The notes beneath the pieces were generated by a model. That model saw only the letters and a list, made by a program, of their open reading frames with translations. It had not been told where the DNA came from and searched no databases. A stretch of 40,223 bases of DNA from Catajapyx aquilonaris (taxonomy: Eukaryota): positions 1 through 40,223 of the forward strand of contig JYFJ02003556.1 of assembly GCA_000934665.2 (NCBI GenBank), given 5' to 3'. The translations under genes were made by a program, and so were the position numbers. The first letter of the stretch is position 1. The number at the start of each line of letters is the position of its first letter. Positions 4,534-39,503 of the stretch are shown here, in pieces.

Positions 4534-4734
4534 TATTTTATTTAAATCGCATGAATTATGCTGGCCGCGGCATATCCATTGTCCACAAAAGGTGCACGTG
4601 CATTCATCTTTAAGAAGTTTTAAAAATCGCAACGATAGCGACCGTATTTTTCACCAAAATCTTTAATAAATGAGCTACTCTGATACCCCAGCCCGCAGCC
4701 TGAATTTTTAATGTTCACAGGTACCGTATTCGAC

Positions 4735-7700
4735 ATGACCCCAAGCAATAAGTCGCCGGAAGCACAAGAACTAGTCAGCAAGTGGAGATGGGTCATTCTC
4801 TTCCTGTACATTGTATCCAACGTTTGCAACTGCTTCCATTGGATAATGTTTTCTGCAATAAGTGACACTGTCATGAAGTACTACAGCGTGACGGCGATTG
4901 CCGTCGAATGGCTTTCTATGGCTTACATGCTATCCTACACGCTTCTCTTTCTTCCCATGACCTACGTCATAGAGAAAAAGGTAATTAATCCTTAACGCGA
5001 TCATGCTATTTTGCCAATTTTGTACAGCTAATTTTGGTAAGGGTTTGAGATTCACGGTGTTGACTGGCACCTTTCTGACTGCCGTGGGAGCCTGGATTAA
5101 AGTGGTGTCGGTGTCTCCGGACCTGTTCTACGTCACTGCCATCGCTCAGTCGGTGGAGGCAGTTGCAGAGGTTTTCCTGTACGGTATTCCTCCCTACATT
5201 GCTGCGACATGGTTCGGACCAGACGAAGTGTCCAGGGCCTGCGCTTTGGGATGCTCGTCCACATTGGTCTGTACAGTACGTAGCAGTCAAGAAATAAAAT
5301 AATGACAGTCAATAATTTTAATTCAGATAGGAACAGCCCTTGGAATGCTGGTCCCCTCAATGATTGTGGCTGACAGCGACAACCACAGGAGCATCGCCAC
5401 GAGATTAAGCACAGTGTTTTACATCGGAAGCGTTCCGCCAACAATCTTCTTTGTGCTGATGGTATTTTGTACGTTGAGATTAACCGAACTGCCTCATTGC
5501 GTAGCACGCTCATCTAATTTATTTTTCCTAATTATATTTTCAGTATTTGACAATGCGCCACCGAAACCGCCGAGTTCGTCAGCGGCAGGTTTGCTCTTGT
5601 CCGGTGTGACCAAAAGATATAAGGATTCGCTGAGAAGCGTCATAAGAAACAAGCACTTTGTTCTGCTCCTGATCACTTACTCTATTGCAATGGGAGTAAG
5701 CGAGGCGGTTCTGACCCTTCTGAATGACTTGGTGCTTCCTAGTTTCCCGGTATGACTTTAACTACTCTTATGCAAGTACAAGGACAGCATTATACAGTTG
5801 TTCCGCATGATTTTTTTCCGGTTTGTTATTCGAAACAGTTTAAAAGCAAATTTCTGCAGGATTTACATTCTAATGTGCAAAAATGCAATTTTTTGTAACT
5901 TTTAGTAGCGAGGGAATTTGTAATTAATTATAATTATTGTATATTATCTACATTTGACTCCAGGTATTTGTATTTCAGATGTACCCTGAAAGTGCAGGAT
6001 GGCTAGGATTCATATCCATGATGGCTTCTTTATGTGGAGCATATATAACGGGAATTTTAATGGACAAGACTCACCTCTTTCGGTCAGTGAAATTAATCAG
6101 TGTGTTTTGGAAACTTGTGTAGAATCCTTAGTAAAATCAGTTGTCTTTTATTTGACGTTACTTTAGAGTACAGTGCCGTGCACAATAGCATATAACAAGC
6201 AAATAACAAGTGTAAACAACGACTTTGGCGTTACCTGGCAACTGGGCGTGTTCGGACATCGGCATGTGGAGAGTGCTTAGCGATCTTTCTGTCATTGCCA
6301 CTGTTTACAGGTAGCGATTGATGCTGGGCGACCTATAGCGAAGGGTGTGTGCATGCTTACCAATGCATGGCATCGGAATAAGCGGGCTGAGGAGATATTA
6401 TTTTGAGAAGGCGCTTCGTTATTATCACACTATCGTCACTGTCTTATTCCCACGATGATGGAGTTATTATCAATCGCTACCTGTAAACAGTGGCAACGAC
6501 AGAAAGAGCGCTGAAGCACTCTCTACATGCCGATGTCCGAACACGCCCAGTTGCCAGGTAACGCCAAAGTCGTTGTTTACACTTGTTATATGCTATTGTG
6601 CACGGCACTGTACCAGCACACATACAGGGTGACTTTAACACATGTAATTGGATCGTATTGTTGATTTCCAATTGTGCCAACTAGCAGATTGTTGTCAGTC
6701 AGTATAGGATGAGTTGGTATACGGTTCAATTGTAGTTGGCACAACTGGAAACCAACAATATAATCCAATTACATAATTATACGTATATCATGACTTTATA
6801 TAGTGACCCTGTAGCATAATACACGGTGATCCGTTTGGGTATAGGGATAGTTTTAAAATGCTGTGGTATGTGTTGTAACAGACAGAATTGATCCAAATTA
6901 GGCGGAGATTACCACTATGAATGGGAGTAATGTTTGTCTAGGTCTCCGCATGACCCCCTTTACGTACTCGGTAGAGTTGCTTTCGGGTGCTTAATTCCTG
7001 CCACGTGTTTTGTAACATTCCCGGAGTGATTTTTGCGAATGCTACAGAAATTTTCACCTCCAGGTCATCCAGGCTTTGAGGTCGTTTTCCGTAGATGATA
7101 GTCTTCACAAACGACACACAATGAAATCGGGGGGAGTTAGATCCAGGGAGTTTGCAGGCCAAGGAATAGGGCCACTACGACCACACCAATATTAATAGAC
7201 AGTGTTGTTGATCTTCCTGACTTCCAGTTCAGCTTCCAGTGACCAGTAGAGTGGGACCCCGTCTTGCTGAAAAATGACATTGTTGTCCAGTTGTGGTACC
7301 AAAATAAGATCTTAGAATGTCAAACTATGGACCTGCTCGTATTGTGTCCTCCAAGAAGGTAAAAGGTCCGTACAGCTGGTTACGCCACATCCAGCCTCTT
7401 TGGTCACAATGTATAGGGCCAATGCAGGCGCACTGAGTGCAGTGCACGACCCTCCCATCTTACCTCGCCAAACTGGCAGAATTTCAACTTGGTACGGCTT
7501 ATGTGTTGATTGTGTTACATATTTTTAATTGTCCCTACCCAAACGGATCACCCTGTAATGTATACATAGTACAGTACATGTGCCACTGAATAAATTACTG
7601 CGCTTTTTACCTGCAGGGAGGCAAACATATTTTTCAATGTCACGAGCGTAGCTGGACTTCTTAGCTTCACCTACGCCCTTTACTGCCAGAACATCAATTA

Positions 7701-8126
7701 TGTTTATGCCTCTGTCGTTTTATATGGGTGAGTTGCAGCCACAAACGTTGAGTAAAATTACCAACAAGACCGCATGTTACATTCTACTTTGCCTCCAGGT
7801 TATCCGTGGCTTACGTCACCTTTGCCTTCGACTATGGTGCTGAATTATGCAATCCCAAGGAAATTGTGATCATGGGAAATATCGTCTGTGTCGTCGGCCT
7901 TGTAGGCGGGATTGGTGTAGTGAATGTTGCAGGCTGGATACTGCAAGACTATGGCAGCCTTTCTTCGCTCCTGTACTTATGCGCGCTGTTAGTTGTAGCT
8001 ACGTTGATAAGCTTCTTCACACGAGGAAAGTACCAGAGGTGTAGTACATCCGAGTCTCCTGCTCGTCCGCGTGAAGAACCCGAGTCCCTTGATGCAGGCA
8101 TGCAGCCCTTTACTTGTACCGTGTAG
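4735..8126 (+). CDS. FLVCR: FLVCR/SLC49-like MFS transporter, array copy 1 (453 aa, most divergent)
   Basis: Exons 4735-4980, 5042-5266, 5327-5468, 5544-5749, 5979-6082, 7617-7727, 7799-8126 splice in frame. Motifs: RWVILF, NCFHWI, GAWIKV, WFGPDEVS, PPKPPS, DKTH. An acceptor at 4720 implies a 5' UTR intron. The symbol is a family label, not an orthology claim. Confidence 0.88.
6171..6610. mobile_element. 440-bp MITE with ~140-150-bp TIRs and TA TSD (Tc1/mariner-type), in intron 5 of copy 1
   Basis: TA|CAGTGCCGTGCACAATAGCATATAACAAG...CTTGTTATATGCTATTGTGCACGGCACTG|TA. The arms remain complementary through CAGGTAGCGATTGAT / ATCAATCGCTACCTG. Confidence 0.9.
6625..6811. mobile_element. 187-bp MITE with CAGGGT termini and TA TSD
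   Basis: TA|CAGGGTGACT...AGTGACCCTG|TA. Internal inverted arms are ATGTAATTGGATCGTATTGTTGATTTCCAATTGTGCCAACTA and TAGTTGGCACAACTGGAAACCAACAATATAATCCAATTACAT. Confidence 0.75.
6822..7555 (-). mobile_element. Internally deleted Tc1/mariner-superfamily transposon (rosa/maT-like) with transposase remnant
   Basis: TA|CACGGTGATCCGTTTGGGTA...TACCCAAACGGATCACCCTG|TA. Minus-strand fragments read VIFQQDGVP, WPANSLDLTP and VKTIIYGKRPQSLDDLEVKISVAFAKIT...GGH, matching the FQQDGAP and WPARSPDLTP motifs, with frameshifts. Confidence 0.85.
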
Positions 8127-10811
8127 ACTTGAGTACAAGTGAAAATAATTCGTGACATTTTTTTCCTGCTTAAAGCAAAAGAAATGCGTGTGAATATTAA
8201 TATGATCGCAAAATAAATTATTATATTCTGAAGAAGGGCCTTTCTTTTCCATCGCGCATGATCCATTGGCTGGACCGTTTTGTGTGTATAGGCATATCGA
8301 TCCAGGCTTCATTCGTCCCTCGGCCTCTCCAAGAACTGGAACCATGTCCTGTCAGGTAGGTTATTTGGTAACACAAGGTATTAAATAACTCACCTGTCGG
8401 ATGGTACGTGGCTGTCCGATACGTGTAACTTTAATAAAAAACTATTCTCCTCCTCCCCATAGATATTTAAAAGGTGTATAGCTCTACCTTTAATGTCTAT
8501 ATGCTCCTCCCGTTTAGCATCAGACATATATAATTATGAATTAACTTCCTTATTGACACAAATTGTGGTTTTGTTGCGCTACTAGAAAATAATCAGAAGT
8601 TTTAGGCGGCAGCTGTACGTACAGACGTACAGTATATTATTATGACAACTATGTATAGCATTGATGTTGTGGCAGGTCATGATGTGGAACGAGACTTTTT
8701 ACCACGAATCTTGGCATCCCGGCAAGGTACTATTAATATATATACACTGTACTTCCGCTTATCCGGGTTAATAACTGCACGGGTGTCGCCAGATAATCGG
8801 AAATCATTGATAATCGTAAAATGGTCCTAGACATCGTAAAAATGAGCTATTCGCAGGATTTTAATGTACTACTGTATAGATACTGCATAGAGTATAGACT
8901 ATGCTAATTCTACACAGGACGATGTAACATTAGGGAGCGAGATAACTAAATAACTCTTATGCGGCCACAAGTGATGCGCAAATATTATTTTATAAATATA
9001 ATGTGGCATATTGTAACTCTTGTGATAATTTAAAAAATCAGCACGCCTAAACTCACACACACTATCACTATAACCTGTAAATCTATAATTCAGTATGCAA
9101 ATAACCACAACCTTGCTAAGAGACCTTGAATTTGTTACGTAATCCTATAGCCGGCAACAGCTGAACCAACACTCATATCCTACAGTCTCGCAATCGAACA
9201 ACAATGTTTATTACTGCATATTTCCAGGTGAATCAGTATGAGCCAAAAACAAAGCAAGTGCACTTCCAAGAAGCGTCAATGACACCACCTGAGGCTATTT
9301 CAAGTCAAGGAGTGACGTAAATTAGGATACGTGAAGGTCATCATCCCAGAAAAAGTCACCCCAAAGTATCACACACAAGTTCTCTGGTTGTGCTGATTTT
9401 GCAGGGGAACCCCCAAACCATGGAAAGTGACCCGACAAGTGACCGCATCTCCGGCCACGTAAGTAATTGCCGATTCAACTGACGTCAGAATTATTCCTAA
9501 AACCATCAATGAACTTTCCCTTGACGGAAGGCCGAGGTTTTTTCTTCTAGCGGTTTAAGATCACGTAGGCCCCAAGACTACGCAATGCATGACCTCCTTG
9601 CGCACACTGTTTTACCGGGAAAATAATTGGACGGAATAATTTCAGCAGGTTGGAGTGGAAACATGTGCCATTCAAGAAGAGGAACTTCTGGCGGCACTTC
9701 AGTATTTATTTTATACCAACATCATATAGTAGAAGGCAGGAAAGGAAGCCAACTTATTGGTTTTTATTCTACGATTTTCCGGTAAGTACTATTCCTGTAG
9801 TTGCAATGACACCATTGCTTCCTGTCAGTAGTAGGCTAGTTGCAGTACAGTACAGTGTAACTGTTTTTTTTTTGTTCCTGTTTTGTAATTTGAAAATGGA
9901 CAGATGTGTCCTATTATTGCTATTCATTCAGGGTGTAATGATTTTTGACACAGATTATCAGAATAAAAATCGATTGCTATTTTTAGATTAACACAAATAA
10001 TACAATAGCTGGTAATATTACGATGATTGAAGGCAATCATTTGCGCGGTATATCGGGAAAACTGAGGGAAGACACGCAAGGCAAGGCGCTATTTTTGTCG
10101 TGGTTTCGCTATTATTCAATGAAAGTTAGAGACTTTCGAGAGCTTACGAGTTTAATAACTAAAAGGCAGTGGTGAGCTGGTTATTAATGACTCCCTCTGT
10201 CGTAAATAAGATGTTAGGTTGTCAGGATTTGGTATTTCATGCGTTTTCGAGACATATTGACATTTTTTGGACTTTTATTTCTAACTTAACTTTTTGCCGA
10301 CGCACGGATAATCCGCAACACGGATAATAGGGAGTGCAATGTACATACTCTTCCAAAACAGGCATAAAATCATCAGTGATAGAGTGAGCCAGACTCGGAC
10401 AAAATCCAGAACCTCCATCATACCGGAAAAACTGGTTTAACAATAAAAATAATAAAAATAAATAAATGCAGAAAGAAAAAATGGGTGTCATAAAATGGAC
10501 AAGAATAAGTGTCATAAATTGGGTTGAGGTATCACAAAAGCGAAATGTTTTCTCCACATTTTGATTGTTTATTGTTTATCCTATAGTCAAAAATCTGATG
10601 GCCGTTGTATGTCCAGATTAACTCCGTCAACATTAATACAGTACAACACATAAGTTATCCAGTATTTACCAATAACATTTGTGGTCTGCTATTGTTGCAT
10701 AACTGCAGGTAGACTATACAGTACGCATGTATAATTCTTGCCTTATACAGAATGGGTTGCATTACTATTTTGGTGTCACATTATTCTTCAACCTCCACAG
10801 GAAGTTAAAAA

Positions 10812-12913
10812 ATGGCAACCCCGCAGAGTCCAACTGAACCAATGGAACTGGAGGATAAAGCAGAAATCAAGGTGTACAAGAGGCGATGGGTAATGCTGGG
10901 CCTGTTCTGCGCCTGCAACATGTGGAACTCATTCCATTGGATACAATATTCAATCATCACGGACATCATCGTCAAATACTACTCCGTTCCTGCTTTCGCC
11001 GTCGATTGGTTGTCTTTAGTCTTCATGGTCTCCTACCTCGTGCTCATTTTCCCAATCATGTTTTTCGTCGACAAGCGAGTGAGTTACTCTATACAGTTTT
11101 TAGACACAATCAGTTGCTAACGTTTCCTTTAATGTTCCGTCTCGTTTCAGGGATTTAAACTGACAGTTCTGTTAGGAACTTTAGCCATGGCTGCAGGCAG
11201 CTGGATTAAAGTGTTCTCCGTAGCTCCAGACCGCTTCTATTTAACATTCATAGGACAGACTGTGGCTTCAATCGCTGAAGCTTTTCTGTACCGAAGTCCC
11301 CCTCGTTTTGCTGCTCTCTGGTTTGGTCCTGACCAGGTGTCCACTGCATGTTCCATTGGTGTCATCAGCTCGCAGGTAAGTCGTTAATCCAATAAGCGTG
11401 CCATCTGTAGCTCATGCAATGTCATTTGCAGTTGGGAACTGCAGCTGGATTTCTGGTCCCTACTCTTGTCGTCTCCGATTCTGCCAGCACTGAAGACATT
11501 GGGCGAGATCTGCAAGGACTGTTTTACGTCAGTAGCATTGTTGGAACTGTTCTCTTCGTTTTGGTAGTTTGCTGTAAGTGTAACCTATACAGACATGCGT
11601 ATGGTATTTTACTAGTTCACACGACTAATGAACATTATAATTCCCTTGACAGTCTTCAAAAACGAGCCTCCGACCCCTCCAAGCCCTGCTCGAGCAGCAG
11701 CGCAGTCTATTCAAGAGACAACCAAGTACAAGAAAACCATAAAGAGCATGATGACCAATTGGGGATTTGTGTTGCTGCTGCTGGCCAATTCGCTCGTTAG
11801 CTCTGCGGTTGATGCCGAAAATATTCTTCTGAATCAAATCATCCTGCTTAAATTTCCGGTAAAGCCATTCACAAAAATATAATTTCTTCTATTTCTGACA
11901 AAGTTTATGTGATTCAACAGGGCAACAACCAGAACACGGGCAGAATGGGTCTTGGAAATATCTTATGTGGAATAGTTGGCGCTTTCTTAGTTGGCATCTG
12001 GCTAGATAAGACACACCGGTTCAAGTAAGTGTATTAACGAGTAAACATTACAGTCAAAATATCTCAGTAAAATTTGCAGGATATTTCGTAATACCTGTCT
12101 CTTTCCCATCAACAGAGAAAGCGGTGTCGTCTTAAGCGGTCTTTACTTCGTCGGACTGCTGGGATTTTCTCTGAGTGTATACTACAACTTCTTGCCTTTG
12201 GTCTACGTATTTTTTCTACTCAGCGGGTACGTATTACTGACACTTAATTTTTCCTGGAACGAATTACTTCGTCACAAAAACTTGCAAAAGAATTAGCAAA
12301 AATAAGTTGTACAATCTTCGTCATTCTCGTTGCACTTTAAGCATGCTAAATGTGCCCCAATAATGCACAGGTCATGATCAGATCTAAGCAGTTATGTAAC
12401 CTCTAGAGTGCAGTATTTCCCCGCCCGTATGCAAATTACCCCTGCCGGCCGGCCCATTGGCGCTGCCTGCCTGACCATGACCGGCATGATGCATGCTCAT
12501 GAGACTCTATCACATCCTACTTCCTTTTGACTCATGCCCCGCCCGCACCTCTCTTCGCCAGCCTGTTCTACGGAGCCTACTTGTCCCTGGGGTACGAGTA
12601 CGGAGTGGAGCTGACATACCCAGAGCCGGAAGGGACACTGGGTGGTCTCCTCAACATCGGGACGTTCGTCTTAGCTGTCGGAGTAGTGTCTCTCGGTGGA
12701 TGGATCCTGAGGACATTCGGTGACCTGAGTGCGACCTTGTTCTTCGCTGGCCTTGGCCTGGTCGCCTTCGTGCTTATGTGTCTGATCAAGGGCGACCTGA
12801 AGAGGCTCAACAAGCAGAAGGAGGCAGGCGAATCCAGTTCAAATGCCACTGCCACGGACACCGCTGCTGCAACGGCAGTGAATGGCGTCAAGGACAAGCT
12901 GGCTCTGCCCTGA
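10812..12913 (+). CDS. FLVCR: FLVCR/SLC49-like MFS transporter, array copy 2 (468 aa)
   Basis: Exons 10812-11078, 11151-11375, 11432-11573, 11653-11858, 11921-12024, 12116-12226, 12562-12913, all GT-AG. Motifs: YKRRW, NSFHWIQYSII, WFGPDQVSTACSIGV, PPTPPS, WLDKTH, ELTYPEPEG, DLKR. Confidence 0.93.
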
Positions 12914-13689
12914 TTTCACTTTTGTAAGACTGACTTTGTAATTTGAATCGTTGTAAATATACAGTTATTTAATTCAAGTTGTACGCCTAGTGCATTGTAA
13001 TATTTACCACATCGATGCCATGGTGAAGGAGAAGGAAACTCGTGGCAGAAATTCCGGGAAATTCAGTACGCATGTGTTGCGCACGCCTATCATGACTCAT
13101 GCAGCCTTTTCTTACCAAATATCACCAATTCATGTCAACGTAGGCTAAAAATGAGCCATTGTGTGATGCTAAGAAACATTGAAATGTAGACTTAGGTCCG
13201 GTTGTATTTAATCGATAGTATTGTGCAAAAACATGTGAAAAACATGGACCAACGACTACTTGTTCTGAACCGGCCATCAACCGCTCAAAGGCACCTTAGA
13301 AGCTTTGTAAATTCTCTCCTGCAAATATCTATACAAAATGAAATTATATTATAGGAGCGCAAAAATTATCTTGAGGAAGCAACATGTGTGTAAGGTTATT
13401 GCACCCCAGATAATAAACTGTCTTCTGCACTAGATAATGAGGATAGGCCTGTTTGCTCTACGCATTTCGCTTTTATTCAGGTAGTCTCCGGTTCTGGTAT
13501 CTAAAGCCGGTCAGCAGCTGGACGCCGCGCCGGTGGGGATGGTAAGTCAGTTCAAATGCAATCCACGGGGGTCAAAGTATTTGTTGACTTATGGCCACAT
13601 CCTCCATTTACATAGCGTAGGGCAGATGCTTCTAGTCGTCTCTGATTTCTTGAAGCAGCAGCAGATGAGATATCCCGCAGGAAGTGACC

Positions 13690-15679
13690 ATGGCGGAGAC
13701 TGTGCCTGCGGAGATCACCCTGTACAAGAAGAGATGGGTGATGCTGGCCCTGTTCTGTGCCTGCAACGCCCTCAACTCCTTCCAGTGGTTCCAATATTCA
13801 ATTATCGCCAATATTGTAATGAGGTATTACGACGTATCGGCGGTGGCTGTCAACTGGCTCACTATGATATTCATGGTGTCATACTTGATTCTGATCTTCC
13901 CCACCATGTTCATTCTGGATAAGAAGGTGCTTTGTTTGCGGTTGGCTCTAATCCGCGCAAAATATTTTTACATTGTTTACTTTTTCCGGAATGATGACAT
14001 AAATTTTTCGATTGTTAATGACGTACAGTCTCGCACATGTTTTAGTTCCTAACGTCGACCACGGTGTAACAATTGGAAGCATTATTATGTGCTTAGCTCT
14101 ACTTTCTTGGCTATTGGCCACCTTTAGTAGTGTAAAGTTTGACTGTGCAAGTGTGCATGAGAGTATATCTTAAATCAAAGAAATATTTTGGCCTCACACA
14201 TATTTTGCCTCATTTCCAATAACCTGTCACACTCTATCACATTTTATATATTTCTCCCCCATATTTCATCCCTAGGGTTTGAAACTGACTGTCTTAATCG
14301 GCATATTGTCAATGACCATGGGAAGCTGGATCAGGGTAATGTCGGCTCAACCGGACCGATTTTACGTGACTGTGATTGGCCAGGCTGTCGGATCCATCGC
14401 CGAAGCCTTCCTCTACAGAACTCCTCCTCGACTGGCAGCACTTTGGTTCGGACCAGACGAGGTCTCCACAGCATGTTCCATCGGTGTAGTCAGTTCTCAG
14501 GTACACCGGTCCCAATCCCACACTGCAGGCTAATAAGTAATAATGTTGTTTTAATAGGTTGGAACGGCATTTGGATTTCTTCTGCCTTCAGTAATAGTGG
14601 ACAACAATGCAGAAATTGATGATATTACGTATGATCTGAGAATATTATTCTACGGGTTCAGTATTATTTGCACGGTCCTGTTGGTTTTAGTCGTGATATG
14701 TAAGTTGTTGCATCGCATTCAGTAACTGGTACTACACAATGTCACAAAACGCCTTTAGTCTTTCAGAGTGAGCCAAAAGTTCCTCCAAGTATGGCTCGTG
14801 CCTCAGCCATTACCAGTGCGGACACAGACAATTTTCAAAAGTCGATTAAAAGCATGGTCACAAACCATGGCTTCATTCTGTTGTTCTTATCCAATTCTCT
14901 CATGAGTGCTGCTGTGGACTCTGCCAATGTGCTTTTGAATCAAATCATTCTGAACAAATTTTCGGTAAGTTCAACTTGACTTGTGACGTGTAACATGACT
15001 TAACGCCTTTTCTTGCAGGATCAACAACAAACTCCGGGAAGATTAGGCCTTGGAAACATCATTCTTGGGGTCATAGGAGCATTCTTGACAGGAGTGTGGT
15101 TAGACCGATGTCACAAGTTTAAGTAAGATTCGCAATAAGTATCTTCCAATGCAGGGGAAATTATGCACATTTTACCGGCAGGTTCAGTGGTGTTATGTCC
15201 TGTGGCCTCTACTGCTTCTCTCTCATTGGCTACACATACAGCGTGTACTATGCCTTTCTGCCCATGGTTTACGTCTCATTCTTGCTCACTGGGTAAGTGA
15301 TGTGAAACCGTTGGTCGTTTTTATTACTAATGCAAATTATCGTCGCAGGTTGTTCTACGGTGCATACCTGACCATCTCGTATGAATTCAGTGTGGAACTC
15401 ACCTATCCAGAACCGGAAGGGATGATGGGAGGGCTGCTCAACATTGGAACATTCATAATGGGAGTAGCTGTGATTAACCTTGGCGGATGGATATTATCCA
15501 CGTATGGAGACTTGTGGGCAAATTACTTTTTCTCGGTCATATCCTTCGCAGCCTTGATTCTCATGCTTGGAATAAAAGAACACTTGAAAAGATTGGGAGC
15601 CCAACAGAGTGAAAAGCAAAAGCTGAACGCTAGTAAGTCATCACTTGAGGCAGGGAGCACTCCTCCTCAAGAAATATGA
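13690..15679 (+). CDS. FLVCR: FLVCR/SLC49-like MFS transporter, array copy 3 (451 aa)
   Basis: Exons 13690-13926, 14276-14500, 14558-14699, 14759-14964, 15019-15122, 15182-15292, 15349-15679. Same motifs as copy 2. AATAAA at 15833. A possible upstream ATG exon ends at 13541. Confidence 0.93.
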
Positions 15680-16072
15680 GTCAAAATTTGGGAGTGAATA
15701 GTGTGCTGGTTACTGGTATAGTGTGTGCCATAAACTCCTAGACCATCTGATAGACTGATGACAACTTGATAATTATTATAAGAAACAGATTTTGGTGTAC
15801 TATTTATCGATTAATATTGCTATTATTGTGCAAATAAAAGTACTGTATTTTGAAACATTTTGCGTTGAGGTTGCCATGAAGTATAATGTTACATCGAGCC
15901 TACCGTATCTGACACTCTGCTGACCTTAATAATTCCATCCTCTTAGCTCGGAATGAGACAATCCAATCACCTTGCACTGAAAAAACCGAAATGGTTACGG
16001 TAACCAAAACTATTTGGTTGAGTGAGATTTGGTTGCTTTCACCAAAATCTTGGCTGAATTGAAAAAACAGAA

Positions 16073-16157
16073 TTGGTTGAAGTATAACCAAAACATTTTG
16101 GTTGAAGTATAACCAAAACATTTTGGTTGAAGTATAACCAAAACATTTTGGTTGAAG
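16073..16157. repeat. 25-bp minisatellite, ~3.4 copies (TTGGTTGAAGTATAACCAAAACATT)
   Basis: Units start at 16073, 16098, 16123 and 16148 (partial). Each unit contains a small TTGGTT...AACCAA hairpin. Confidence 0.9.
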
Positions 16158-16243
16158 GGTGAAGGGCCTATGCGATCGTTTCAACCAAAACCTTAGCTAC
16201 TACAACCAAATGTACACCATGTCAACGAAAATTTTGGTTACAT

Positions 16244-16307
16244 CAACCAAATATTTTTGTAGAACGACAACCAAATATTTTTGTAGAACGACAACCAAAT
16301 ATTTTTG
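16244..16307. repeat. 24-bp minisatellite, ~2.7 copies (CAACCAAATATTTTTGTAGAACGA)
   Basis: Units start at 16244, 16268 and 16292. Confidence 0.9.
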
Positions 16308-16719
16308 GTTACTTCAACCAAATTTTTAGCAGGTTCTATATTAACCTTCCTATTTGGTTGAATTAAACATTTTTTTGGTTTGTTCAACTATATATTTTTT
16401 TTGAGTGTGCATATGAACTAAACCTGACAATGGCAACTACATACTAATAAAGTAATAAGTATATATTTTCCTAATGGCCATGCTGCAGAGGCTAGTGCGG
16501 TATTTTCTACTAAAATTATAGTGTTATTAACAGTTTAGAAATTCAGATTCAAGTATCTGATATCGGCTAATCTTCAATAATAATCTGAACATATCTTGAT
16601 AAGTTATTAGTACAATGAACTGATTAAAAGAAGTAGTTATTGTCTATTCCCTTGTACCAATCCTGTACCTATCAGTCGATAAGTAGGCGAACAAAGAGGA
16701 TACACGTGCATACCGAGCA

Positions 16720-19117: not shown

Positions 19118-19313
19118 AGAGGCACGCACACTAGCATTTTCTAAAATTTAAATATAGTCTACTGTGTAAGAGGTGGTTACCACGATGCGATTATTCAAAC
19201 GCTATTAAAGACGATACTGGCAGAAATACTTTCAATGTGGAAATAAACGAACACTTGTCACTTGTTTTGAAATTTTCACTAATATTCTCTTACACAACCA
19301 CCTCTAATAGATG

Positions 19314-19928: not shown

Positions 19929-20033
19929 ATGAACTGATAGGAAACAAGGCATTGTCTGCTCCCTCAGTGCACTAAACTTGTACACATCAGTTGACAGTAG
20001 ACTGACAAGCAGAATACGAGCGTATATCGAGCA

Positions 20034-23934: not shown

Positions 23935-26585
23935 ATGGAGCTAGACCAGCAACAGGATTTCAAATTATACCGGAGGAGATGGATTATGCTCGCACTTTTC
24001 TGTGTTTGTGCTCTTTTGGAAGCGTTTCAGTGGTTCCAGTACTCGTCTATCGCCAACCTCATCGTTAAGTATTATGGAGTGTCTTACCTGGCGGTGGACT
24101 GGTTATACATGATGTTCACCTGTGTGTACATGACGTTCGTATTGCCAGCGATATTTTACATCGACAAAAAGGTATGTGGCCCATTATGTTATTAGTACAT
24201 TCACTCGAGCAATTGCAATTTACAAATGCTGTGCCTATAAAATATTTATGACGCGCCACATGAAGTGAAACATTGAAAAGTTCTGAATCAAATTGCACAA
24301 ACTGCACCATGTTTGCTCAAGTGATGCCCACATTAATTTCTTTCTGTGTTTCTGTGTGTAGTTATGACTACTTAATTTTTAGAACCTCAAGGTAACCATA
24401 TTTTTGGGAATCTTCTGCATGGCTGTAGGAGGCTGGATAAAAGTTGTAGCTGTGTCTCCTGATCTTTTCTACGTGGCGGCCATTGGTCAAGGTATAGGGG
24501 CGCTGGCTGAAGTTTTCATATTCAGAAGTTTGCTCAGGGTTGTGGCGCTTTGGTTTGGCCCAAAAGAAGCTTCTACTGCGTCTGGTATTGGAGTCCTATT
24601 CATGCAGGTAACACCTTTCAACTTACGTACGTACGTACGTACGTATATTCCGCAGTAACTCTTTTCAATTGTGCTGTCTATTATGAGACCAACATTTCCT
24701 TTATACGACGTACGTTTATACGTACAATACGTTAATTATATACGTTTATATATATATTAATTATCCGTAATATCTTTGATGCCTCCCATTTTTATCATTA
24801 TGCTATAGTGTAACTTATTTGCTATTTATTGTAGAAGAATTACATGACACGTATTTTATCACCGTCATTGTTCATGACATTTTTAAAATCCTCATGGAAA
24901 CTTTTGATGTAACGGGTCAGCTTTTCAAGTGCAATGTAACATGTGGCATTCTAGAGCACTTCACCGTCCAGCACTACAAATTCCGTTATCATCATCAGAG
25001 CTATCGGACAGACAGCGTTTCGCAAATCCAGTCATAATGGCTGTATGTGATTTTTGAAGTGGAAATCACTGAGCAAATTGATATCATTATTGATATCAAT
25101 GCAAGTAGGAAAATCCGTGTTTCAACATAAAGCAATGCTTAACAAGGATATCCCGCGTCAATTACAGAGCACATATATATGATATAAAATCGGAACATTA
25201 TTATCTTGTATACTGAACGCTACACGAACTTAATATATCCTCCTGAGACCTGATGTCCAATATATTGGACATCAGCAAAAATAAAAAGGTGTCAACTGAA
25301 ATTGACGCATTTTTTTTGCTGATGTCCAATATATTGGACATCAGGTCTCAGGAGGATATAAATTTTAGTAGAGATATTATAATTTCAGTAATTTGCAGGG
25401 TGGCCAAGCCATAAGTTTCATCTTACCAACGATAATAGTCAAGAATCACAAAGACATCAATGGAATAGGACACGACCTGAGGACATTGCTATACTCTTAC
25501 GCCATAGCAGCCTCTTTCGTCCTCCTCTTAATTTGCCTCTGTAAGTTGTAAAGACTGAAACATGACCTCATATAGAGCATGACAAATTTTTGTTGCAGTT
25601 TTCCAAAGTGCACCACCAACACCTCCTAGTGTTTCAAGTGAAACAGTAGGCAAAGAGGATGACCCTCGTAACTACAAGAAGGCCCTATGGAAAATGCTCA
25701 CCAATCGTGACTTCATGCTCGTTGTACTCGCATACTCTCTAGTTAATGCCACAACCGACTCTGCAAGTGTCATGCTCAATGAAATCATTTTGGGAAAATT
25801 TGGAACCGTAAATATCACATGTGCATTGTTGCAATTATTATGACGTACAATATCAACACTTAAGGTGTACAATCCGATATTGTCGTATTTCAGGAGTATC
25901 AAGAGACCCCTGGCAGACTAGGACTTTTATCAACAGTATGTTCGTTAATAGGCCCACTAGTAATGGGCTTGTGGCTGGATCGCACACACACTTTTAAGTA
26001 AGTCACGTGTCACCACTTCTTATAATAGAAATGGGTCACAAAATTACACCAATTTTCTTTAAGGTCCAGCGCAGTAGCAGTTGGAGGCCTACTTTTCCTT
26101 TCTCAACTGGGATACACTTACAGTGTTTACTATGCACAACTGCCTCTCGTGTACGTCAGTTACTTATTCCTCGGGTACGTCCACAGGCTTATTTCATTTA
26201 GTACGAGTTAAAATGATGATTTCAAATTAAGCCGAATTTTATTTTCAGATTCTTCTACGGATTTTTTGTGACTGTGGCACTTCCTTATGGCGTAGAACTT
26301 AACTTTCCAGAACCGGAAGGAATAGTTGGAGGGATATTCAATGTTGGACTGCAGTTGACTGAAGTTGTGGCAATCAACACGGGAAGCTGGATTCTAAGGA
26401 CACATGGTGACTTGTGGGTGAACACATTTGGATGTTGTTTGGCGGGCTTTGCTGTTGTGGGTGTTGTGATGGGAAAAGAAGACTTGAAGAGGTTGGCTGC
26501 TAGCAAAGCGAGTGCGGTTGCTTCACAGAAAATTTCGACCAATGGATCTGTCTCTGTAGAGGTCGTTTCTAATGGAAGGTTGTAG
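23935..26585 (+). CDS. FLVCR: FLVCR/SLC49-like MFS transporter, array copy 6 (454 aa)
   Basis: Exons 23935-24171, 24383-24607, 25399-25540, 25599-25807, 25894-25997, 26064-26174, 26249-26585 splice in frame. Contains ELNFPEPEG. Confidence 0.92.
24624..24645. repeat. (TACG)n microsatellite
   Basis: About 5.5 perfect units just inside intron 2 of copy 6. Confidence 0.85.
25239..25355. mobile_element. 117-bp fold-back MITE, CC...GG termini with ATAT flanks (piggyBac-like)
   Basis: ATAT|CCTCCTGAGACCTGATGTCCAATATATTGGACATCAGCAAAAA...TTTTTGCTGATGTCCAATATATTGGACATCAGGTCTCAGGAGG|ATAT, with perfect arms. The superfamily assignment is inferred. Confidence 0.8.
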
Positions 26586-27434: not shown

Positions 27435-27499
27435 TTGTTGTTGTTGTTGTTGTTGTTGTTGTCGTCGTCGTCGTCGTTGTTGTTGTTGTTGTTGTTGTT
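27435..27499. repeat. Compound microsatellite (GTT)n(GTC)5(GTT)n
   Basis: Directly visible in the sequence. Confidence 0.95.
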
Positions 27500-32740: not shown

Positions 32741-32861
32741 CTACAGCTTTTACCACCGAGCGTTACGCCCCATGTGCAGTGACACAACCTGCCTATTATT
32801 TCCTGCCAGCGCCTCGTGACAGACCTGACAGTGTGCTAGACCGTAGTGCTCTGAGACATCC

Positions 32862-35085
32862 ATGATGGAAGAAGGCAGAAGTGTCGACGTCGCTGTCGTA
32901 GGTGTTGATTACCCGAAGGACACGGGCAAGGACACGTACGTCGTGTATAGAAGACGGTGGTTGGCTCTGTTCATCTTCAGCGCCTGCAACTTGAGCAATT
33001 CCTTGCACTGGTTTCAGTACGGCGTCATTTCCAACATTGTGTCCCGTTTCTATTCGGCCTCTGTTTGGGCAGTGGATGGACTCACGCTGCTTACAATGTT
33101 GGCCTACGTGCTGTTCATACTGCCAGTGACATATTTCGTGGATAAAAGGGTAAAGTTGTGCAGGTTTGCATTTTTGTTCGGGTCCTCCCTCAATGGCCAT
33201 TCCTCATACGTATGTATCAAGGACTTGTATTGCATAGGGCCCACAATTAAGTCAAATAATGCGGATTCATTTGGGCTAATAATACTACACGTTGCGAAAG
33301 CTATGCAATTGAGCACAGAGCCGGCAGGTATTGTGACGATACATCCCATGTTAGCAAGGTTGTAAGTTTGAAGGTCTGTGGTAGTGATGCATGGTATATC
33401 ACCACGTGAAGTAATCGGACCTCATCTCTGATACGTACCATTAAGTACAATAAACCAGTTCATATTTTAATAACAATTTGTTTATCCTCAGGGTCTAAAA
33501 TGGTCAGTGTTATTGGGAATTATTTTGACAACAATCGGCAGCTGGATCAAGGTCGTTTCGGTTCAACCTGGCCTCCTTTATGTGGCGTTTATCGCGCAAA
33601 GTTGCATAGCCTTGTCATGTGTTTTCCTATATGGAGTACCTCCTAGACTGGCTGCAGTGTGGTTTGGACCTGATCAAGTGTCCACAGCATGTGCCATTGG
33701 AGTCGTGTCTTCGCAGGTACGGTATGACAACAGTCATTATTTACTGCATTTATTTAACCCTAAAGTCAAAATGAATTCAGCCTTCTTGTGGCAAAAAGGC
33801 AAGCCAAAATATTTCAACAATATGTCAACAAACTAATGTTACCTCTCAGGCAGGAGTAGGCTTGGGTCTCCTGGTACCACCGTATGTGGTACACGACAGT
33901 GACGACCTGGAGAGCATTTCTAATCAACTGCAGATGATGTTCTATGGATGCGCTGGAATTTCAACAGCTTCTCTTCTGCTTGTAATATTTTGTAAGTTTT
34001 CTTACTCGTCACAGTGGTGAAGCCACGTGGTGTTTACTTCTGAGGAGGCTTAATAACCTGAAATTATTTCATCCTTGACAGTCTTCAAAAGCGAGCCACC
34101 GACCCCTCCTAGTTCATCTCAAGCCGCAGTCAAAGCCTGGGGCGAAAAGCAAGACTACTTAGGTTCCCTTAAAAAATTCTTAACCAACAGAGACTTCGGC
34201 ATACTCCTGGTGTCATATGCAATAATTAATGCTTGCATCAACTCGTTTGGAGTTTTTATCAACCAAGTTGTTCTGGAGAGATTCCCAGTAAGTGCAATGT
34301 TTTTTGAAATTTAACAAATATATAAAAAGTCATTAAGGTAGATTGTAAGTCTATGGCATAGTTTCGTCATAATGAAGATGGATAACTAAGCAACATGTCT
34401 CCTGCAGAAGCTCAAGGATAATACTCAGTTCCTTTATTCAGAATCACATAGAAGATGCTGGTCAGTTGGGAAACCTCAACATTTACGTCGGAATAGCCGG
34501 TGCTTTTATACTGGGAATCTGGCTGGATAAAACACATATATACCAGTAAGGGTTAACGGGAACACGTCGTCAATTTTTTCTAACTATATACTAAATTTCA
34601 GGTCTGCGGGTGTGTTCATATATGCAGTGTCATGCGTTGGATTCCTGGGAGCCATGTTCAGTTTCGCATACAGATCATTACCAGGCACCTACGCCACGTT
34701 TGTGTTCATAGGGTGAGTATTTAATAAATTGTGGTGCTTTTCTTATGCACGACGATTTACAACTGTTCATTTCAGGACTTTCTACGGAGCTTACATGGCA
34801 CTGGGATTCGAGCAAGGAGTGGAGCTGACCTACCCGGAATCGGAAGGAATGATGGCTGGGCTCTTGAACATGGCCACCTATTTGGGAACCTTAATCACTT
34901 CGGCCATCGGGGCAGTATTGTTAAGTTATTTCAAGTCTATGGGATATCTTATTTTTCTGTGCTGCATCTTAGTCCTGGGGCTTATCATGGCTACACTAAT
35001 TCGAGATGTGCGAAGGAGATATGACGCGCAACAAGAAAATCAAAAGAGTGAATTTGTTCATGAAAATCTGTCAGTGAATACCTAG
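32862..35085 (+). CDS. FLVCR: FLVCR/SLC49-like MFS transporter, array copy 8 (461 aa; closest paralog of copy 7)
   Basis: Exons 32862-33149, 33492-33716, 33850-33991, 34082-34287, 34442-34545, 34602-34712, 34776-35085. AATAAA at 35119 and 35156. Confidence 0.93.
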
Positions 35086-36387: not shown

Positions 36388-38440
36388 ATGGAAGTCGAAC
36401 TGAGCAGTGTCGTTAGTAACGATTCCACAGAAGGTGCATCTAAATCCAGTTACAGAGTTTACAATAGAAGATGGGTGACGCTGGCTATTTACTTCGCCTG
36501 CAACTTTTGCAACTGCATGCAGTGGATGCAGTACAGCATCATTTCCGACGTTGTGTCTCGCTACTATTCGGCATCGATATGGGCAGTGGACGCATTGTCA
36601 TTCATGATCATGGTCCCCAGTACAGTGCTCTTGTTACCAATTTCTTATATCATGGATAAGAAGGTGAGGTTTACCTGGTCTAATGAGACTGGAATTGAAA
36701 TACTGTTTTTTGTTTGTTTGAAAAGTGCAGTAAGAGCGCCATTCTATCATTAAAGCATTTGGTTGTATCAACTCAAATTAAGGAGAAAATGAAAATGTAT
36801 AGACATAATCTGATATTTTCCATAATTTGCTTCAGTACTGTACAACCAGCCCTTACAACTGACTACAGCATTTCTTTTTCCCTGCTGTACAGGGCTTGAA
36901 GTGGACAATACTCACAGGTATTCTTTTGACCGCGATTGGCAGCTGGATCAAAGTTGTTTCGGTGAGACCCGACCTGCTGTACGTGGGGTTCATTGCTCAA
37001 GGCACAATAGCAGTAGCAAGCGTCTTTTTGTACGCGAGTCCTCCTCGACTAGCTGCCATTTGGTTTGGACCTAACCAGGTTTCAACAGCCACTAGCATTG
37101 GTGTCACATCTGCGCAGGTAGTCTACATTGTCTCATTTCACCTATCTCTTTCTTGTTTTGATAATGAGGTTCAGTAGGCTACATATCTTCATCTATGTCT
37201 ATATCTTCAGGCAGGGATCGGCATGGGTCTTTTGATACCACCTTACGCAGTACACAACAGCGATGATTTGAACATTATTGGACACCAACTGCAAATGATG
37301 TTCATCATATACGCTGTCATTGCCACAGCGTGCCTGCTTCTGGTCGTATTTTGTATGCTAAGTTGTTGTTTATCAGTGCGTAACATCGCAGATGCCCAAA
37401 CATTATTTTGTAACTTGCACTTTACTTATTGCAACTTGTCCTTGGCAGTGTTTCAAAGCGAACCTGCTACACCTCCCAGCGCAGCTCAGGATGCAGCCAG
37501 AATCTTCCGCAATGAAAAGCAAAAGAATAAAAACTCTGTCAAGAAATTCCTCACTAATAGAAGTTTCGTTCTACTTCTTTTGTCGTACGCAATTGTTAAC
37601 TCGTCTAACAACGTGACTGGGACCTACCTGAGCCAAATAGTTCTCGAGAAATTTCCAGTAAGTAACGAGTTCTGGAAGAAAGGTTCAATATCACTTTTTC
37701 AAAAATTTATTTACTTATACGAATAGACTACTATTAATTACAGTATCATTAGCGGCTGGCTAAACCTAATATTAAAATCTGTCAGTGTTTGATAAGCCAA
37801 TTGATATTTTTAATTGACAACTCCAATTTTAGGGCCACGAAGAAGATGCAGGGGAGTTGGGTAACCTGTTCAACTACTCAGGAATACTTGGATCCTTTCT
37901 CATTGGCATTTGGTTGGATAAGACGCATATATACAAGCAAGTATTCCTGTATTTTATCATAGTTATTAACTAAAACCATTTTAATTATCTACCACTGTTT
38001 TCAGGGAAAGTGGTATATTCATATATGCCGTTATATGCACAACAACCCTGGGCATAATGTTCAGTCTAATTTTCCGATCTTTGCCAGCCATTTACATCTC
38101 TTTCGCAGTTTCAGGGTAAGACACATAACTAAACTTTTCTAATCAGTTTGACTACACTCTTTTTAATTTCAGAATATTTAACGGATCATACATGTCATTC
38201 GGATACGAGCAAGGACTGGAACTGACGTATCCAGAATCAGAAGGCGTAATGTCTGGCCTTATGAACACGCTTACTTGCTTACTAACTTTAGTCATGGCGA
38301 TCGTTGGAGCATTATTGTTCACGTATTACAAATCTTTTGGATTCATTTCCTTTACATGTTGCCTTTTAGCAACTGGCCTTGCATTATCTACTCTTATTCG
38401 GGATGAGAGAAAAAGATTTGATGCCGCTCCCAATAAGTAA
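36388..38440 (+). CDS. FLVCR: FLVCR/SLC49-like MFS transporter, array copy 9 (444 aa; GC-AG intron 5)
   Basis: Exons 36388-36663, 36893-37117, 37211-37352, 37449-37657, 37833-37936, 38005-38115, 38173-38440. The frame requires the donor AA|GCAAGT. AATAAA at 38472. Confidence 0.9.
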
Positions 38441-38747
38441 ATTAATGTCACCCAGATTGTTTTGTCATAAAAATAAAAGCACATTACTGATTGACATTTC
38501 TCGATATCAAACCACAATGTGGTTATCCCATCAATAGCATAATGATGTAACAGTTATTGTTTTCTGACACGGAGATGGGATCACAATATTCTACGTTGCC
38601 TTCGCTAACACACATTTCCATTTTTGCCATTCTGACCGTCATTAGCCTGACATAATATTGACTGCTAAAGTAGCAACTCACATGGGAACAATACCAGCAA
38701 CCTTGAGTAAAAACAGGTCAGTCCACATTACCATTGCAAGCAGGCCA

Positions 38748-39503
38748 ATGCAACAGTCCAAGATGAGCAAGAACGACGCCAACACTACTTGCGAACCTAC
38801 CCCAGAGACCAAACTGTACAAAAGGAGATGGATCATCTTATTCTTGTTTTCAGCCTGCAATTTCTGGAACTCATATCACTGGATCCATTACTCGATCATA
38901 TCCGACATTGTGGTCAAATACTACGAAGTACCACCCTGGGCAGTGGACTCCCTTTCCGTCGTGTACATGGTATCATACGTCATTTTCGTACTACCAGCCT
39001 TGCACGTGCTAAACCGAAAGGTATGTTACCAACTTTGCGACTACTAAAAAAGTACTAAGGCGTACTTCTTCTTCACAGGGATTACGTGTCACTGTCCTGC
39101 TTGGAATAACTGGAGTGACGTTGGGAGCGTGGATGAAGGTTCTGTCGGCGTCTCCAAATAGATTCCTTGTCACATTTGTGGGTCAAACACTGTCTGGAAT
39201 TGCTCTCACGTTTCTTTTCGGAGTGCCTCCCAGGTTGGCAGCAGTCTGGTTCGGCCCTAATGAGGTGTCAACTGCTTGCTCTATCGGCGTATTCGGGGCA
39301 CAAGTAAGTGATGCATAGCCTCCTTCTGCTTACATAGGACTAACATTAGTTCTATCGCCAGCTTGGAGTTGCCCTAGGATTCATGCTCCCACCGTGGGTT
39401 GTCACGGATCAGAATGAAGTAAAAAGAACCACGGACGACCTTTCCAAGCTGTACTATGTTGGAAGCATTGCACCTACCGTTTTCCTCTTGGGAATTATCT
39501 TAT
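38748..39503 (+). CDS. FLVCR: FLVCR/SLC49-like MFS transporter, array copy 10 (first three coding exons; presumably continues beyond the window)
   Basis: Exons 38748-39020, 39079-39303, 39362-39503. Motifs: YKRRW, NSYHWIHYSII, GVPPRLAAVWFGPNEVSTACSIGVFGAQ. An alternative in-frame ATG lies at 38682. Confidence 0.88.

Follow-up and report, generated by a model that had tools for sequence, protein, structure and literature searches.

The window, that is, the whole stretch of 40,223 nucleotides of Catajapyx aquilonaris DNA analysed here, carries between positions 4735 and 39503 ten FLVCR/SLC49-like genes on the + strand, nine of them complete and the tenth running past the window end. Gene models were assembled from stop-free exons bounded by AG and GT, with copy 2 as the reference for scoring, and resulted in the following features:

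4735..8126, + strand: copy 1 CDS, 7 exons (4735-4980, 5042-5266, 5327-5468, 5544-5749, 5979-6082, 7617-7727, 7799-8126), 453 aa; gene model, pocket alignment
10812..12913, + strand: copy 2 CDS, 7 exons (10812-11078, 11151-11375, 11432-11573, 11653-11858, 11921-12024, 12116-12226, 12562-12913), 468 aa; gene model, 6 of 6 introns in one spliced contig
13690..15679, + strand: copy 3 CDS, 7 exons, 451 aa; introns 1, 5 and 6 seen as contig joints
16720..19117, + strand: copy 4 CDS, 7 exons, 456 aa; introns 3 and 5 seen as contig joints
20034..22993, + strand: copy 5 CDS, 7 exons, 449 aa; 79% identity with copy 4
23935..26585, + strand: copy 6 CDS, 7 exons, 454 aa; intron 1 seen as a contig joint
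29300..31740, + strand: copy 7 CDS, 7 exons, 455 aa; gene model
32862..35085, + strand: copy 8 CDS, 7 exons, 461 aa; 70% identity with copy 7
36388..38440, + strand: copy 9 CDS, 7 exons, 444 aa; intron 5 with a GC donor
38763..39503, + strand: copy 10, partial, exons 1-3, 208 aa; remainder beyond the window

The nine complete copies, each with seven coding exons, encode proteins of 444-468 aa that are all stop-free in translation. Exons 2 and 3 measure 225 and 142 nt in all ten copies, exon 4 either 206 nt (copies 1, 2, 3, 7 and 8) or 209 nt (copies 4, 5, 6 and 9), and exons 5 and 6 measure 104 and 111 nt in 9/9 complete copies. Splice sites follow the GT-AG rule in 55 of 56 introns; the single GC-AG exception, intron 5 of copy 9 (donor GCAAGT), is needed for in-frame splicing and lies outside the read-covered stretch. 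These rebuilt models agree with an earlier note on this DNA, which had described ten same-strand copies sharing their exon architecture, and the nine complete copies are indeed intact and in frame. Exon 4 of copy 10 was looked for in the last 720 nt of the window and is not there. A tblastn search of the ten proteins against the window revealed no extra fragments, pseudo-exons or decayed copies, and only five matches outside exons (E 0.28-0.96).

The introns and spacers had also been described as full of dead transposons, a picture that the scans did not confirm: Pfam scans detected no transposon families among 20 ORFs (E<=0.01) or among 55 non-exon ORFs of at least 70 aa (E<=1), and every match of the latter was sub-cutoff and unrelated to transposons. 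Apart from the exons, repeats in the window are limited to a duplication of 95 nt and two structures with inverted repeats. Within copy 1, the 1534-nt intron 5 harbours an element that looks like a foldback or a MITE:

6198..6594, no strand: inverted repeat with two 81-nt arms (98% complementary) separated by 235 nt

Scans for Rfam families and tRNAs gave no matches.

Transcription and splicing of the copies

Transcript data came from the contigs of one public run (X1), whose type is unrecorded and which covers positions 4700-24699 only, giving no ranking of expression. Twelve predicted introns of copies 2, 3, 4 and 6 were seen in these contigs as GT..AG joints, together with two introns in 5′UTRs. 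A contig of 1666 nt joins the 5′ non-coding exons of copy 2 to each other (9458|9646) and to the coding region (9780|10800-10801), both joints being GT..AG. In the case of copy 1, a contig begins at 4726 with a loose end of 27 nt that matches positions 2429-2455 with one mismatch (0/100 shuffles matched), and a 5′ non-coding exon probably ends with this stretch.

~9362-9458 and ~9646-9780, + strand: 5′ non-coding exons of copy 2, spliced to 10801
2429..2455, + strand: 3′ end of a putative 5′ non-coding exon of copy 1; loose contig end, followed by GT

At least copies 2, 3, 4 and 6 are transcribed and spliced as predicted, and probably copy 1 is too. Over copy 5 (20041-23375) there is no X1 contig cover, which says nothing on the expression of that copy, and neither does the position of copies 7-10 outside the covered stretch.

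Family membership and known relatives

The assignment to the FLVCR/SLC49 family made in the earlier note is supported by two lines of evidence. When exons 1, 2, 4 and 7 of copy 2 were searched against the PDB with phmmer, the sole matches were human or mouse FLVCR1/FLVCR2 (5/5 distinct sequences per query; E 1.6e-18, 2.1e-15, 1.8e-7 and 9.9e-12). Moreover, when the ten spliced proteins were compared with the outgroups by blastp, each copy matched 67/67, and all ten align collinearly and almost from end to end with annotated FLVCR/C09D4.1-like proteins (E 1e-66 to 1e-128). For the nine complete copies the best E-values are 1e-82 to 1e-128, over ~420-450 residues; for the partial copy 10 the best is 3e-70. 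The database relatives, mostly arthropod and 30-43% identical, bear the names FLVCR, C09D4.1-like, 'choline/ethanolamine transporter' or 'histamine transporter', and carry Pfam MFS_1 (PF07690). Single-exon translations matched this same profile in two of six pieces (E 0.0045 and 0.0012, below cutoff), and a crude hydropathy count, too coarse to rely on, gave 7-12 transmembrane peaks, varying by copy.

Among characterized members, human FLVCR1 (SLC49A1) and FLVCR2 (SLC49A2) are uniporters of the same family (PDB 8ubw, 8qcs, 8qcx and 8vzn) that align without gaps to the searched exons of copy 2 over TM1, TM5, TM7 and TM11, and are described as carrying choline and ethanolamine (PMC11168923). The array counts at least ten tandem copies against these two human genes (PMC11168923), and its copies are ~29-39% identical to vertebrate-type sequences. 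In Drosophila, the SLC49 member HisT (CG1358) is described as transporting histamine in a Na+-dependent manner (PMC9604546). It is an arthropod case in which the scaffold carries an organic amine other than choline and can thus change its substrate. Orthology of the array to HisT was considered and is not supported: the copies form a separate clade (100/98), on an unresolved backbone, in trees that took in 'histamine transporter' rows rather than CG1358 itself; those rows (Lycorma, Rhynchophorus and Oratosquilla) keep a canonical W-Q-F-Y-Q pocket and group with the arthropod orthologues, not with the array. The commonest names of its nearest relatives refer to C. elegans C09D4.1, as in the insect 'uncharacterized MFS-type transporter C09D4.1-like' proteins.

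That the family is usually low-copy, as had been assumed, is an overstatement in view of the velvet mite Dinothrombium tinctorium, for which a published account reports an FLVCR-like expansion in three orthogroups of 47, 27 and 21 members, ~25-30% identical to FLVCR1/2 (PMC6275457). Judging from that description, the mite genes too are divergent FLVCR-like members of the MFS in an invertebrate, and their expansion is specific to the lineage (PMC6275457). Fused two-copy FLVCR gene models are present in a centipede, a predatory mite, a firefly and a fish. A literature search returned neither tandem FLVCR arrays nor pocket-remodelled paralogues, PMC6275457 being the only report of an FLVCR-like expansion among its results, and paralogues and arthropods are not treated in the text of PMC13160678 as covered by a term search.

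Divergence, selection and phylogeny

Amino acid identity among the copies ranges from 27 to 79%, and NG86 dS was saturated and not computable in 30 of the 45 pairs. Across the 15 computable pairs omega was 0.15-0.44, and the four pairs with dS <1 gave values of 0.24-0.36 (NG86) and 0.33-0.44 (YN00); dN/dS was 0.36 and 0.44 by these two methods for copy 5 versus copy 4, and 0.24 and 0.33 for copy 8 versus copy 7. Exons are 59-94% identical between copies, whereas the similarity of introns is at the level of shuffled sequence. After 0.15 substitutions per site of simulated neutral evolution, 0-0.3% of the sequences lacked stops; at 0.3 or more it was 0/1000. The duplications are old, and frame, exon lengths and splice sites are preserved in all copies of the window. 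Altogether, dN/dS below 1, conservation of exons versus introns and the lack of decayed copies in the window uphold the proposal that the array was kept by selection, and the copies are under purifying selection.

Trees were built with outgroups from arthropods, nematodes and a mollusc plus vertebrate-type sequences. With 31 outgroups (41 rows) the array is recovered as a single clade (UFBoot 100, SH-aLRT 98) on an unresolved backbone, and with 67 outgroups (77 rows) the array clade reaches an SH-aLRT of 99, although fast-evolving sequences attracting each other could account for part of this support. The larger tree places the array beside C09D4.1-like paralogues of Zootermopsis and Anabrus (SH-aLRT 96), a grouping not recovered in the 41-row tree. 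Within the array, the branching order is ((((4,5),6),3),2), ((7,8),9), then 1 and 10, which mirrors the gene order and therefore indicates growth by repeated local duplication. Regarding the lineage-specific expansion put forward in the earlier note, monophyly (100/98) holds, and, judged against public protein collections only, specificity to the lineage may hold.

A rebuilt substrate pocket

The choline-contacting residues described for human FLVCR1 are W125, Q214, F348, Y349 and Q471, which with FLVCR2 numbering correspond to W125/W102, Gln214/191, Phe348/324, Tyr349/325 and Gln471/447, the TM1 Trp making a cation-π contact with the amine (PMC11168923). According to the same source, the mutation Q191A of FLVCR2 abolishes transport of both choline and ethanolamine, and Q214A of FLVCR1 abolishes that of ethanolamine (PMC11168923). 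These five positions were mapped through ungapped HMMER alignments (TM1, TM5, TM7 and TM11) and the 77-row alignment, in which the copies read:

Copy 1: W-E-S-E-L
Copies 2 and 3: W-E-V-D-F each
Copies 4 and 5: W-E-S-D-M each
Copy 6: W-E-T-D-Q
Copy 7: W-C-V-N-S
Copy 8: W-C-I-N-Y
Copy 9: W-S-N-N-C
Copy 10 (partial): W and L at the first two positions

All five residues W-Q-F-Y-Q are present in 39 of the 67 outgroups. The array, in contrast, keeps the TM1 Trp in 10/10 copies and replaces the rest: Q214 is retained in 0/10, F348 and Y349 each in 0/9, and Q471 in 1/9 (copy 6). At the Gln214 position we find E (copies 1-6), C (7 and 8), S (9) or L (10), at Phe348 S, V, T, I or N, at Tyr349 D or E (1-6) or N (7-9), and at the TM11 Gln position, from copy 1 to copy 9, L/F/F/M/M/Q/S/Y/C. 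Over the nine complete copies, 10 of the 45 pocket cells (22%) are kept, against 59% of the cells in 105 further canonical-conserved columns (Fisher p = 1.5e-6, the cells not being independent). Canonical conserved columns are kept in 50-75 of 109-110 cases by copies 1-9 and in 45/50 by copy 10, the least derived, in contrast with the Zootermopsis and Anabrus paralogues, which keep 100-105 of 106-110 and a W-Q-F-Y-E pocket. A Glu at the Gln214 position is also found in the representatives P0154, P0119, P0072 and P0120. With an FLVCR-like expansion already known from the velvet mite, it is the rebuilding of the pocket that is new here.

Alternative explanations

An artefact of assembly or annotation, be it repeats that were collapsed or expanded or ORFs that arose by chance, can practically be dismissed, and nothing was seen in its favour. 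The copies differ at 21-73% of residues, and independent public-run contigs match 12 predicted splice junctions exactly; in agreement with the earlier note, which had judged an assembly artefact unlikely given the divergence between copies, it is excluded because the copies are far too diverged. The array is real and comprises ten or more tandemly duplicated 12-TM-type major-facilitator genes of the SLC49/FLVCR family. Considerably less improbable, though still the less likely case, is that these genes are an ancient family and not a lineage-specific one, with sub-groups (1; 2-3; 4-6; 7-9; 10) that are older and common to many related taxa missing from databases. Identity between sub-groups (27-45%) is about that to the FLVCRs of other animals (30-43%), the tree has an unresolved backbone, and the proteins of the organism itself are absent from the protein collections. 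However, the copies form one clade (100/98) separate from 31 or 67 outgroups, their physical order mirrors the tree, and among the best 150 representatives of 1.84 billion none exceeds 50% identity with any of the copies.

A partly decaying array, in which some copies, above all copy 1 and perhaps copy 9, would be young pseudogenes or non-transporting relics with only an intact appearance, is rather improbable. Copy 1 is the most divergent complete copy, and it may be losing function because its ELTYPEPEG motif reads ELCNPKEIV and its terminal branch is the longest (~2.0); moreover, it keeps 61/109 canonical conserved columns, and copy 9 depends on its GC donor. Against this, nine frames are open and their exon lengths have not changed although dS is saturated, neutral evolution in the simulation leaves essentially no stop-free survivors, contigs cover copy 1 and include a spliced exon upstream of it, and copies 4 and 5 keep even fewer canonical columns than copy 1 (50 and 52 of 110), yet show an omega of 0.36-0.44 against each other. 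Amplification for dosage alone, in which all copies would do the same work as choline/ethanolamine (or heme) transporters and be retained to raise capacity, would fit with FLVCR family membership, the TM1 Trp of all copies and the fact that tandem amplification is a common route to dosage. It is nevertheless very doubtful given identities of only 27-79%, a mostly saturated dS and the replacement of 4/5 choline-contacting positions, differently between sub-groups, at one of which the Gln-to-Ala mutations of FLVCR1 and FLVCR2 are reported to kill transport (PMC11168923). Because of the replaced positions, the choline/ethanolamine or heme function implied at the outset is unlikely for these copies.

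Functional interpretation

The reading that we favour, with a probability of about 0.65, is that selection has maintained a set of transporters whose substrates have diversified and are probably organic cations different from choline. On the basis of five aligned positions and homology, the Trp kept in all ten copies and the replacement of the other four positions by sub-group point to cation carriers of diversified selectivity. The copies would be alternating-access MFS carriers in which positively charged small molecules are still bound through the TM1 Trp. In copies 1-6, Glu in place of Gln214 and Asp/Glu in place of Tyr349 would put two carboxylates in a cavity that is neutral in FLVCR1/2, and in copies 7-9 these positions hold Cys/Ser and Asn, so that the pattern of replacement differs per sub-group. 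After duplication, selectivity and possibly coupling may have diversified by neo- or sub-functionalisation, and the outcome would be a wider repertoire of organic cations or amines, choline aside, that the animal could take up or export. A link to diet, excretion or detoxification, as raised in the earlier note, is conceivable. A bolder and quite tentative proposal is that copies 1-6 represent a carboxylate-lined organic-cation carrier that could be proton-coupled, for instance a polyamine- or alkaloid-like amine exchanger or exporter, that copies 7-9 represent a second, uncharged type of pocket, and that together they make up an undescribed, radiating SLC49 subfamily. If so, the natural pocket variants would map how the FLVCR fold sets both substrate choice and coupling.

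The FLVCR/SLC49 family has been re-assigned only recently from heme to choline/ethanolamine transport. Copies such as these would probably receive a wrong label from annotation pipelines in which all members of the family are named 'choline/ethanolamine transporter' or 'heme transporter'. The array constitutes a natural series of at least nine intact, selected paralogues and hence a ready-made structure-function panel for substrate choice in the FLVCR fold, and it points to a specialised need of this animal to move some class of small cations.

Gene models and extent of the array

The window consists of eukaryotic DNA with a G+C content of 36-46% per 2-kb window and numerous short exon-like open frames on its + strand, where a tblastn search with an insect relative as query revealed ten collinear sets of matches. 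Copy 2, whose seven coding exons were delimited by hand, served as reference. For the other copies, the inter-copy intervals were searched for stop-free, phase-correct segments bounded by AG and GT (or GC) and closest in sequence to the peptides of copy 2; at every site, a candidate of canonical length was the best or near-best match. Exons 2 (225 nt) and 3 (142 nt) keep their length in all ten copies and exons 5 (104 nt) and 6 (111 nt) in the nine complete ones, while exon 4 measures 206 nt in copies 1, 2, 3, 7 and 8 and 209 nt in copies 4, 5, 6 and 9. After exon joining, the complete copies encode uninterrupted proteins of 444-468 aa, and the introns of the ten copies (n=56, 54-1534 nt) are GT..AG in 55 of 56 cases, intron 5 of copy 9 being GC..AG with the donor GCAAGT. 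Of copy 10, the window contains exons 1-3 only (38763-39503, +) and ends 720 nt further on. These models bear out the earlier note, which had described at least 10 same-strand copies with a common exon architecture and intact complete members: ten copies are found, and nine of the nine complete ones are stop-free.

Stop-to-ATG spacers span 322-2714 nt. The shortest (322 nt, 38440-38763) separates copies 9 and 10, the others measuring 776-2714 nt, and these two copies may have a common transcript or a very compact promoter. A tblastn search of the window with all ten proteins found no further copy or fragment, including in the 4.7 kb that precede copy 1; since matches outside exons were limited to five weak ones (E 0.28-0.96), decayed copies are absent from the window. 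Downstream, the array may extend beyond it.

Family assignment and phylogeny

Single exons of copy 2 compared with all PDB sequences matched FLVCR1 and FLVCR2 only (E 1.6e-18, 2.1e-15, 1.8e-7 and 9.9e-12). All nine complete copies align over about 420-450 residues to named relatives (30-43% identity, E 1e-82 to 1e-128), and the names of the database relatives include FLVCR-related protein, C09D4.1-like MFS transporter, choline/ethanolamine transporter, heme transporter and histamine transporter. These relatives carry PF07690, and exon-sized pieces of the copies, used singly as Pfam queries, gave an MFS_1 match below the cutoff. Judged by sequence, the copies are members of the FLVCR family.

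The ten copies form one clade in a 77-row tree (SH-aLRT 99) and in a careful 41-row tree (UFBoot 100 / SH-aLRT 98), so that the monophyly that the earlier note had named as a check was recovered with outgroups from public collections. The topology, ((((4,5),6),3),2) and ((7,8),9), followed by 1 and 10, mirrors physical order. In the 77-row tree, but not in the 41-row one, the array is sister to two polyneopteran C09D4.1-like paralogues. Clade support could come in part from shared fast evolution; the physical linkage of the copies provides an independent argument for local duplication. An exon 7 profile run against 1.84 billion representatives retrieved 651 relatives, and none of the best 150 exceeded 50% identity to any copy, so that proteins from the organism itself are evidently absent from these collections.

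Age and selective maintenance

Amino acid identity among copies ranges from 27 to 79% and is highest between neighbours: 59% for copies 2-3, 79% for copies 4-5 (with copy 6 at 58%) and 70% for copies 7-8 (with copy 9 at 56-57%). By the NG86 method, dS was saturated and not computable in 30 of 45 pairs; omega was 0.14-0.36 in the 15 computable ones, and the four pairs with dS <1 gave 0.24-0.36 (0.33-0.44 by YN00). Recognisable repeats across copies within the window are confined to exons: paired copies retain 59-94% exon identity, whereas their introns are similar only at shuffle level, save introns 1 and 3 of the pair 4-5. Moreover, simulated neutral substitution left 0-0.3% of copies stop-free at 0.15 changes/site and 0 of 1000 at 0.3 or more. 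The saturated dS, low omega, conservation of exons over introns and the neutral simulation together show that the copies are old and maintained, in agreement with the earlier proposal of an array kept by selection, for which dN/dS had been suggested as a check.

Exon 1 of copies 4, 5 and 6 (16720-16956, 20034-20255 and 23935-24171) shows 94% (4-5) and 84% (4-6) identity, compared with 75-90% and 66-76% in the other exons. Gene conversion at the 5' end or a stronger constraint on TM1-TM2 could account for this likeness.

Transcription of the array

X1, the sole sequencing run found for a transcript check, is of unrecorded type and not RNA-labelled; its contigs were placed on 4700-24699 and allow no ranking of expression. 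They contain 14 joints, all GT..AG, of which 12 correspond exactly to predicted introns. Such intron precision indicates that X1 contains cDNA-derived sequence, and part of the array is transcribed.

Introns and non-coding exons supported by X1 contigs
Copy 2: all six introns, in one 1666-nt contig
Copy 3: introns 1, 5 and 6
Copy 4: introns 3 and 5
Copy 6: intron 1
Copy 2, 5' non-coding exons (remaining two joints): about 9362-9458 and 9646-9780, +, joined to 10801

In copy 1, a contig beginning at 4726 has a 27-nt loose end that equals 2429-2455 with one mismatch and is followed in the window by GT, so that a non-coding exon upstream is very probable for this copy as well. Copy 5 is covered by no X1 contig, a gap without bearing on its expression. 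Two contigs lie entirely within introns, at 12290-12547 (+, intron 6 of copy 2) and 13977-14258 (-, 6 differences, intron 1 of copy 3), and could be unspliced RNA, antisense or repeat transcripts, or DNA carry-over.

Repeats in introns and spacers

The earlier note had described introns and spacers full of dead transposons, a picture that the Pfam search does not support: none of 55 non-exon ORFs in the window gave a transposon domain, and structural hints are limited to a pair of inverted-repeat elements and a single short duplication.

Non-coding features of the window
79-1100, +: overlapping degenerate ORFs without a Pfam match; a segment of 95 nt occurs twice here (257-351 and 590-684, 93% identical)
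2195-2376: near-perfect hairpin whose 78-nt arms are 94% complementary and enclose a loop of 26 nt; the probable 5' non-coding exon of copy 1 follows some 50 nt downstream
6198-6594: inverted repeat (81-nt arms, 98% complementary, 235 nt apart) in the unusually long intron 5 of copy 1 (1534 nt)
16073-16157 and 16244-16307: perfect short tandem repeats in the spacer that separates copies 3 and 4, with 3.4 units of 25 nt and 2.7 units of 24 nt
27435-27499: (TTG)n microsatellite, 21.7 units long, in the spacer that separates copies 6 and 7

Peptides from 79-1100 (YNSAFQMTSFGA..., ...QGQIYH..GSLL...FLQLYF) may resemble the N-terminal region of Helitron Rep/helicase proteins, and the inverted repeat at 6198-6594 has the look of an inserted foldback element or MITE.

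Replacement of the substrate pocket

Cryo-EM of human FLVCR1/2 places choline and ethanolamine in contact with W125/W102 of TM1 (cation-pi) and with Y349/Y325 and F348/F324 of TM7, with Q214/Q191 and Q471/Q447 hydrogen-bonding the ligand hydroxyl; activity is lost when W or Q is mutated to A, and the authors describe a neutral cavity (PMC11168923). These positions were mapped through HMMER alignments to PDB chains, ungapped around the contacts and in agreement with the 77-row L-INS-i alignment. The canonical W-Q-F-Y-Q occurs in 39 of 67 outgroups, among them insects, crustaceans, springtails, nematodes and vertebrate-type sequences.

Pocket residues of the array copies
Copy 1: W-E-S-E-L
Copy 2: W-E-V-D-F
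Copy 3: W-E-V-D-F
Copy 4: W-E-S-D-M
Copy 5: W-E-S-D-M
Copy 6: W-E-T-D-Q
Copy 7: W-C-V-N-S
Copy 8: W-C-I-N-Y
Copy 9: W-S-N-N-C
Copy 10: W-L (other positions beyond the window)

By alignment, the pocket of the copies has been replaced. Over 110 columns, each at least 90% conserved across canonical rows, copies 1-9 retain 59% of cells outside the pocket versus 22% (10/45) within it (Fisher p = 1.5e-6, the cells of related copies not being independent). In 26 conserved columns the residue is lost from eight or all nine of the copies, and many of these columns are near those of the pocket (end of exon 2, exon 4 and start of exon 7, in copy-2 positions). Copy 10 is the least derived (45/50 conserved columns retained), and copies 4 and 5 the most (50/110 and 52/110). 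Glu at the Gln214 position is not unique to the array, since four of the 67 outgroups, the database relatives P0154, P0119, P0072 and P0120, have it in other clades.

Other FLVCR expansions

That the family is usually low-copy, the premise of the earlier note, is too strong. The velvet mite Dinothrombium tinctorium has FLVCR-like expansions of 47, 27 and 21 members, compared with 0, 1 and 3 in a chigger (PMC6275457). Several database entries join adjacent copies into one fused model (Strigamia P0005, Galendromus P0274, Lamprigera P0163/P0001 and Lepidogalaxias P0275), and paralogues number two to four in several insects, so a large FLVCR-like cluster has precedent. P0005 (Strigamia maritima, UniRef, 474 aa) contains exon-2-like and exon-7-like segments twice each, nearly identical, and is either a model wrongly fused across a very recent tandem pair or a duplication introduced in assembling the centipede genome. 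In the literature searched, neither a comparable tandem FLVCR array nor FLVCR paralogues with a remodelled pocket are described.

Proposed substrates

Because the Trp is retained, the substrate of the copies would be cationic or an amine, and choline and ethanolamine are disfavoured since both hydroxyl-binding Gln and the Tyr/Phe pair are replaced. The pair of carboxylates seen in copies 1-6, set beside the polar uncharged residues of copies 7-9, would point to two or more new selectivity classes. Proton-coupled MFS cation carriers typically contain buried carboxylates, for which reason altered coupling in the carboxylate-bearing copies may be entertained as a speculation. Heme is the substrate historically ascribed to the FLVCR family. 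Choline and ethanolamine are among its known substrates, and the Drosophila member HisT transports histamine (PMC11168923, PMC9604546). Given this family range, it is plausible that the copies have diversified among small cations.
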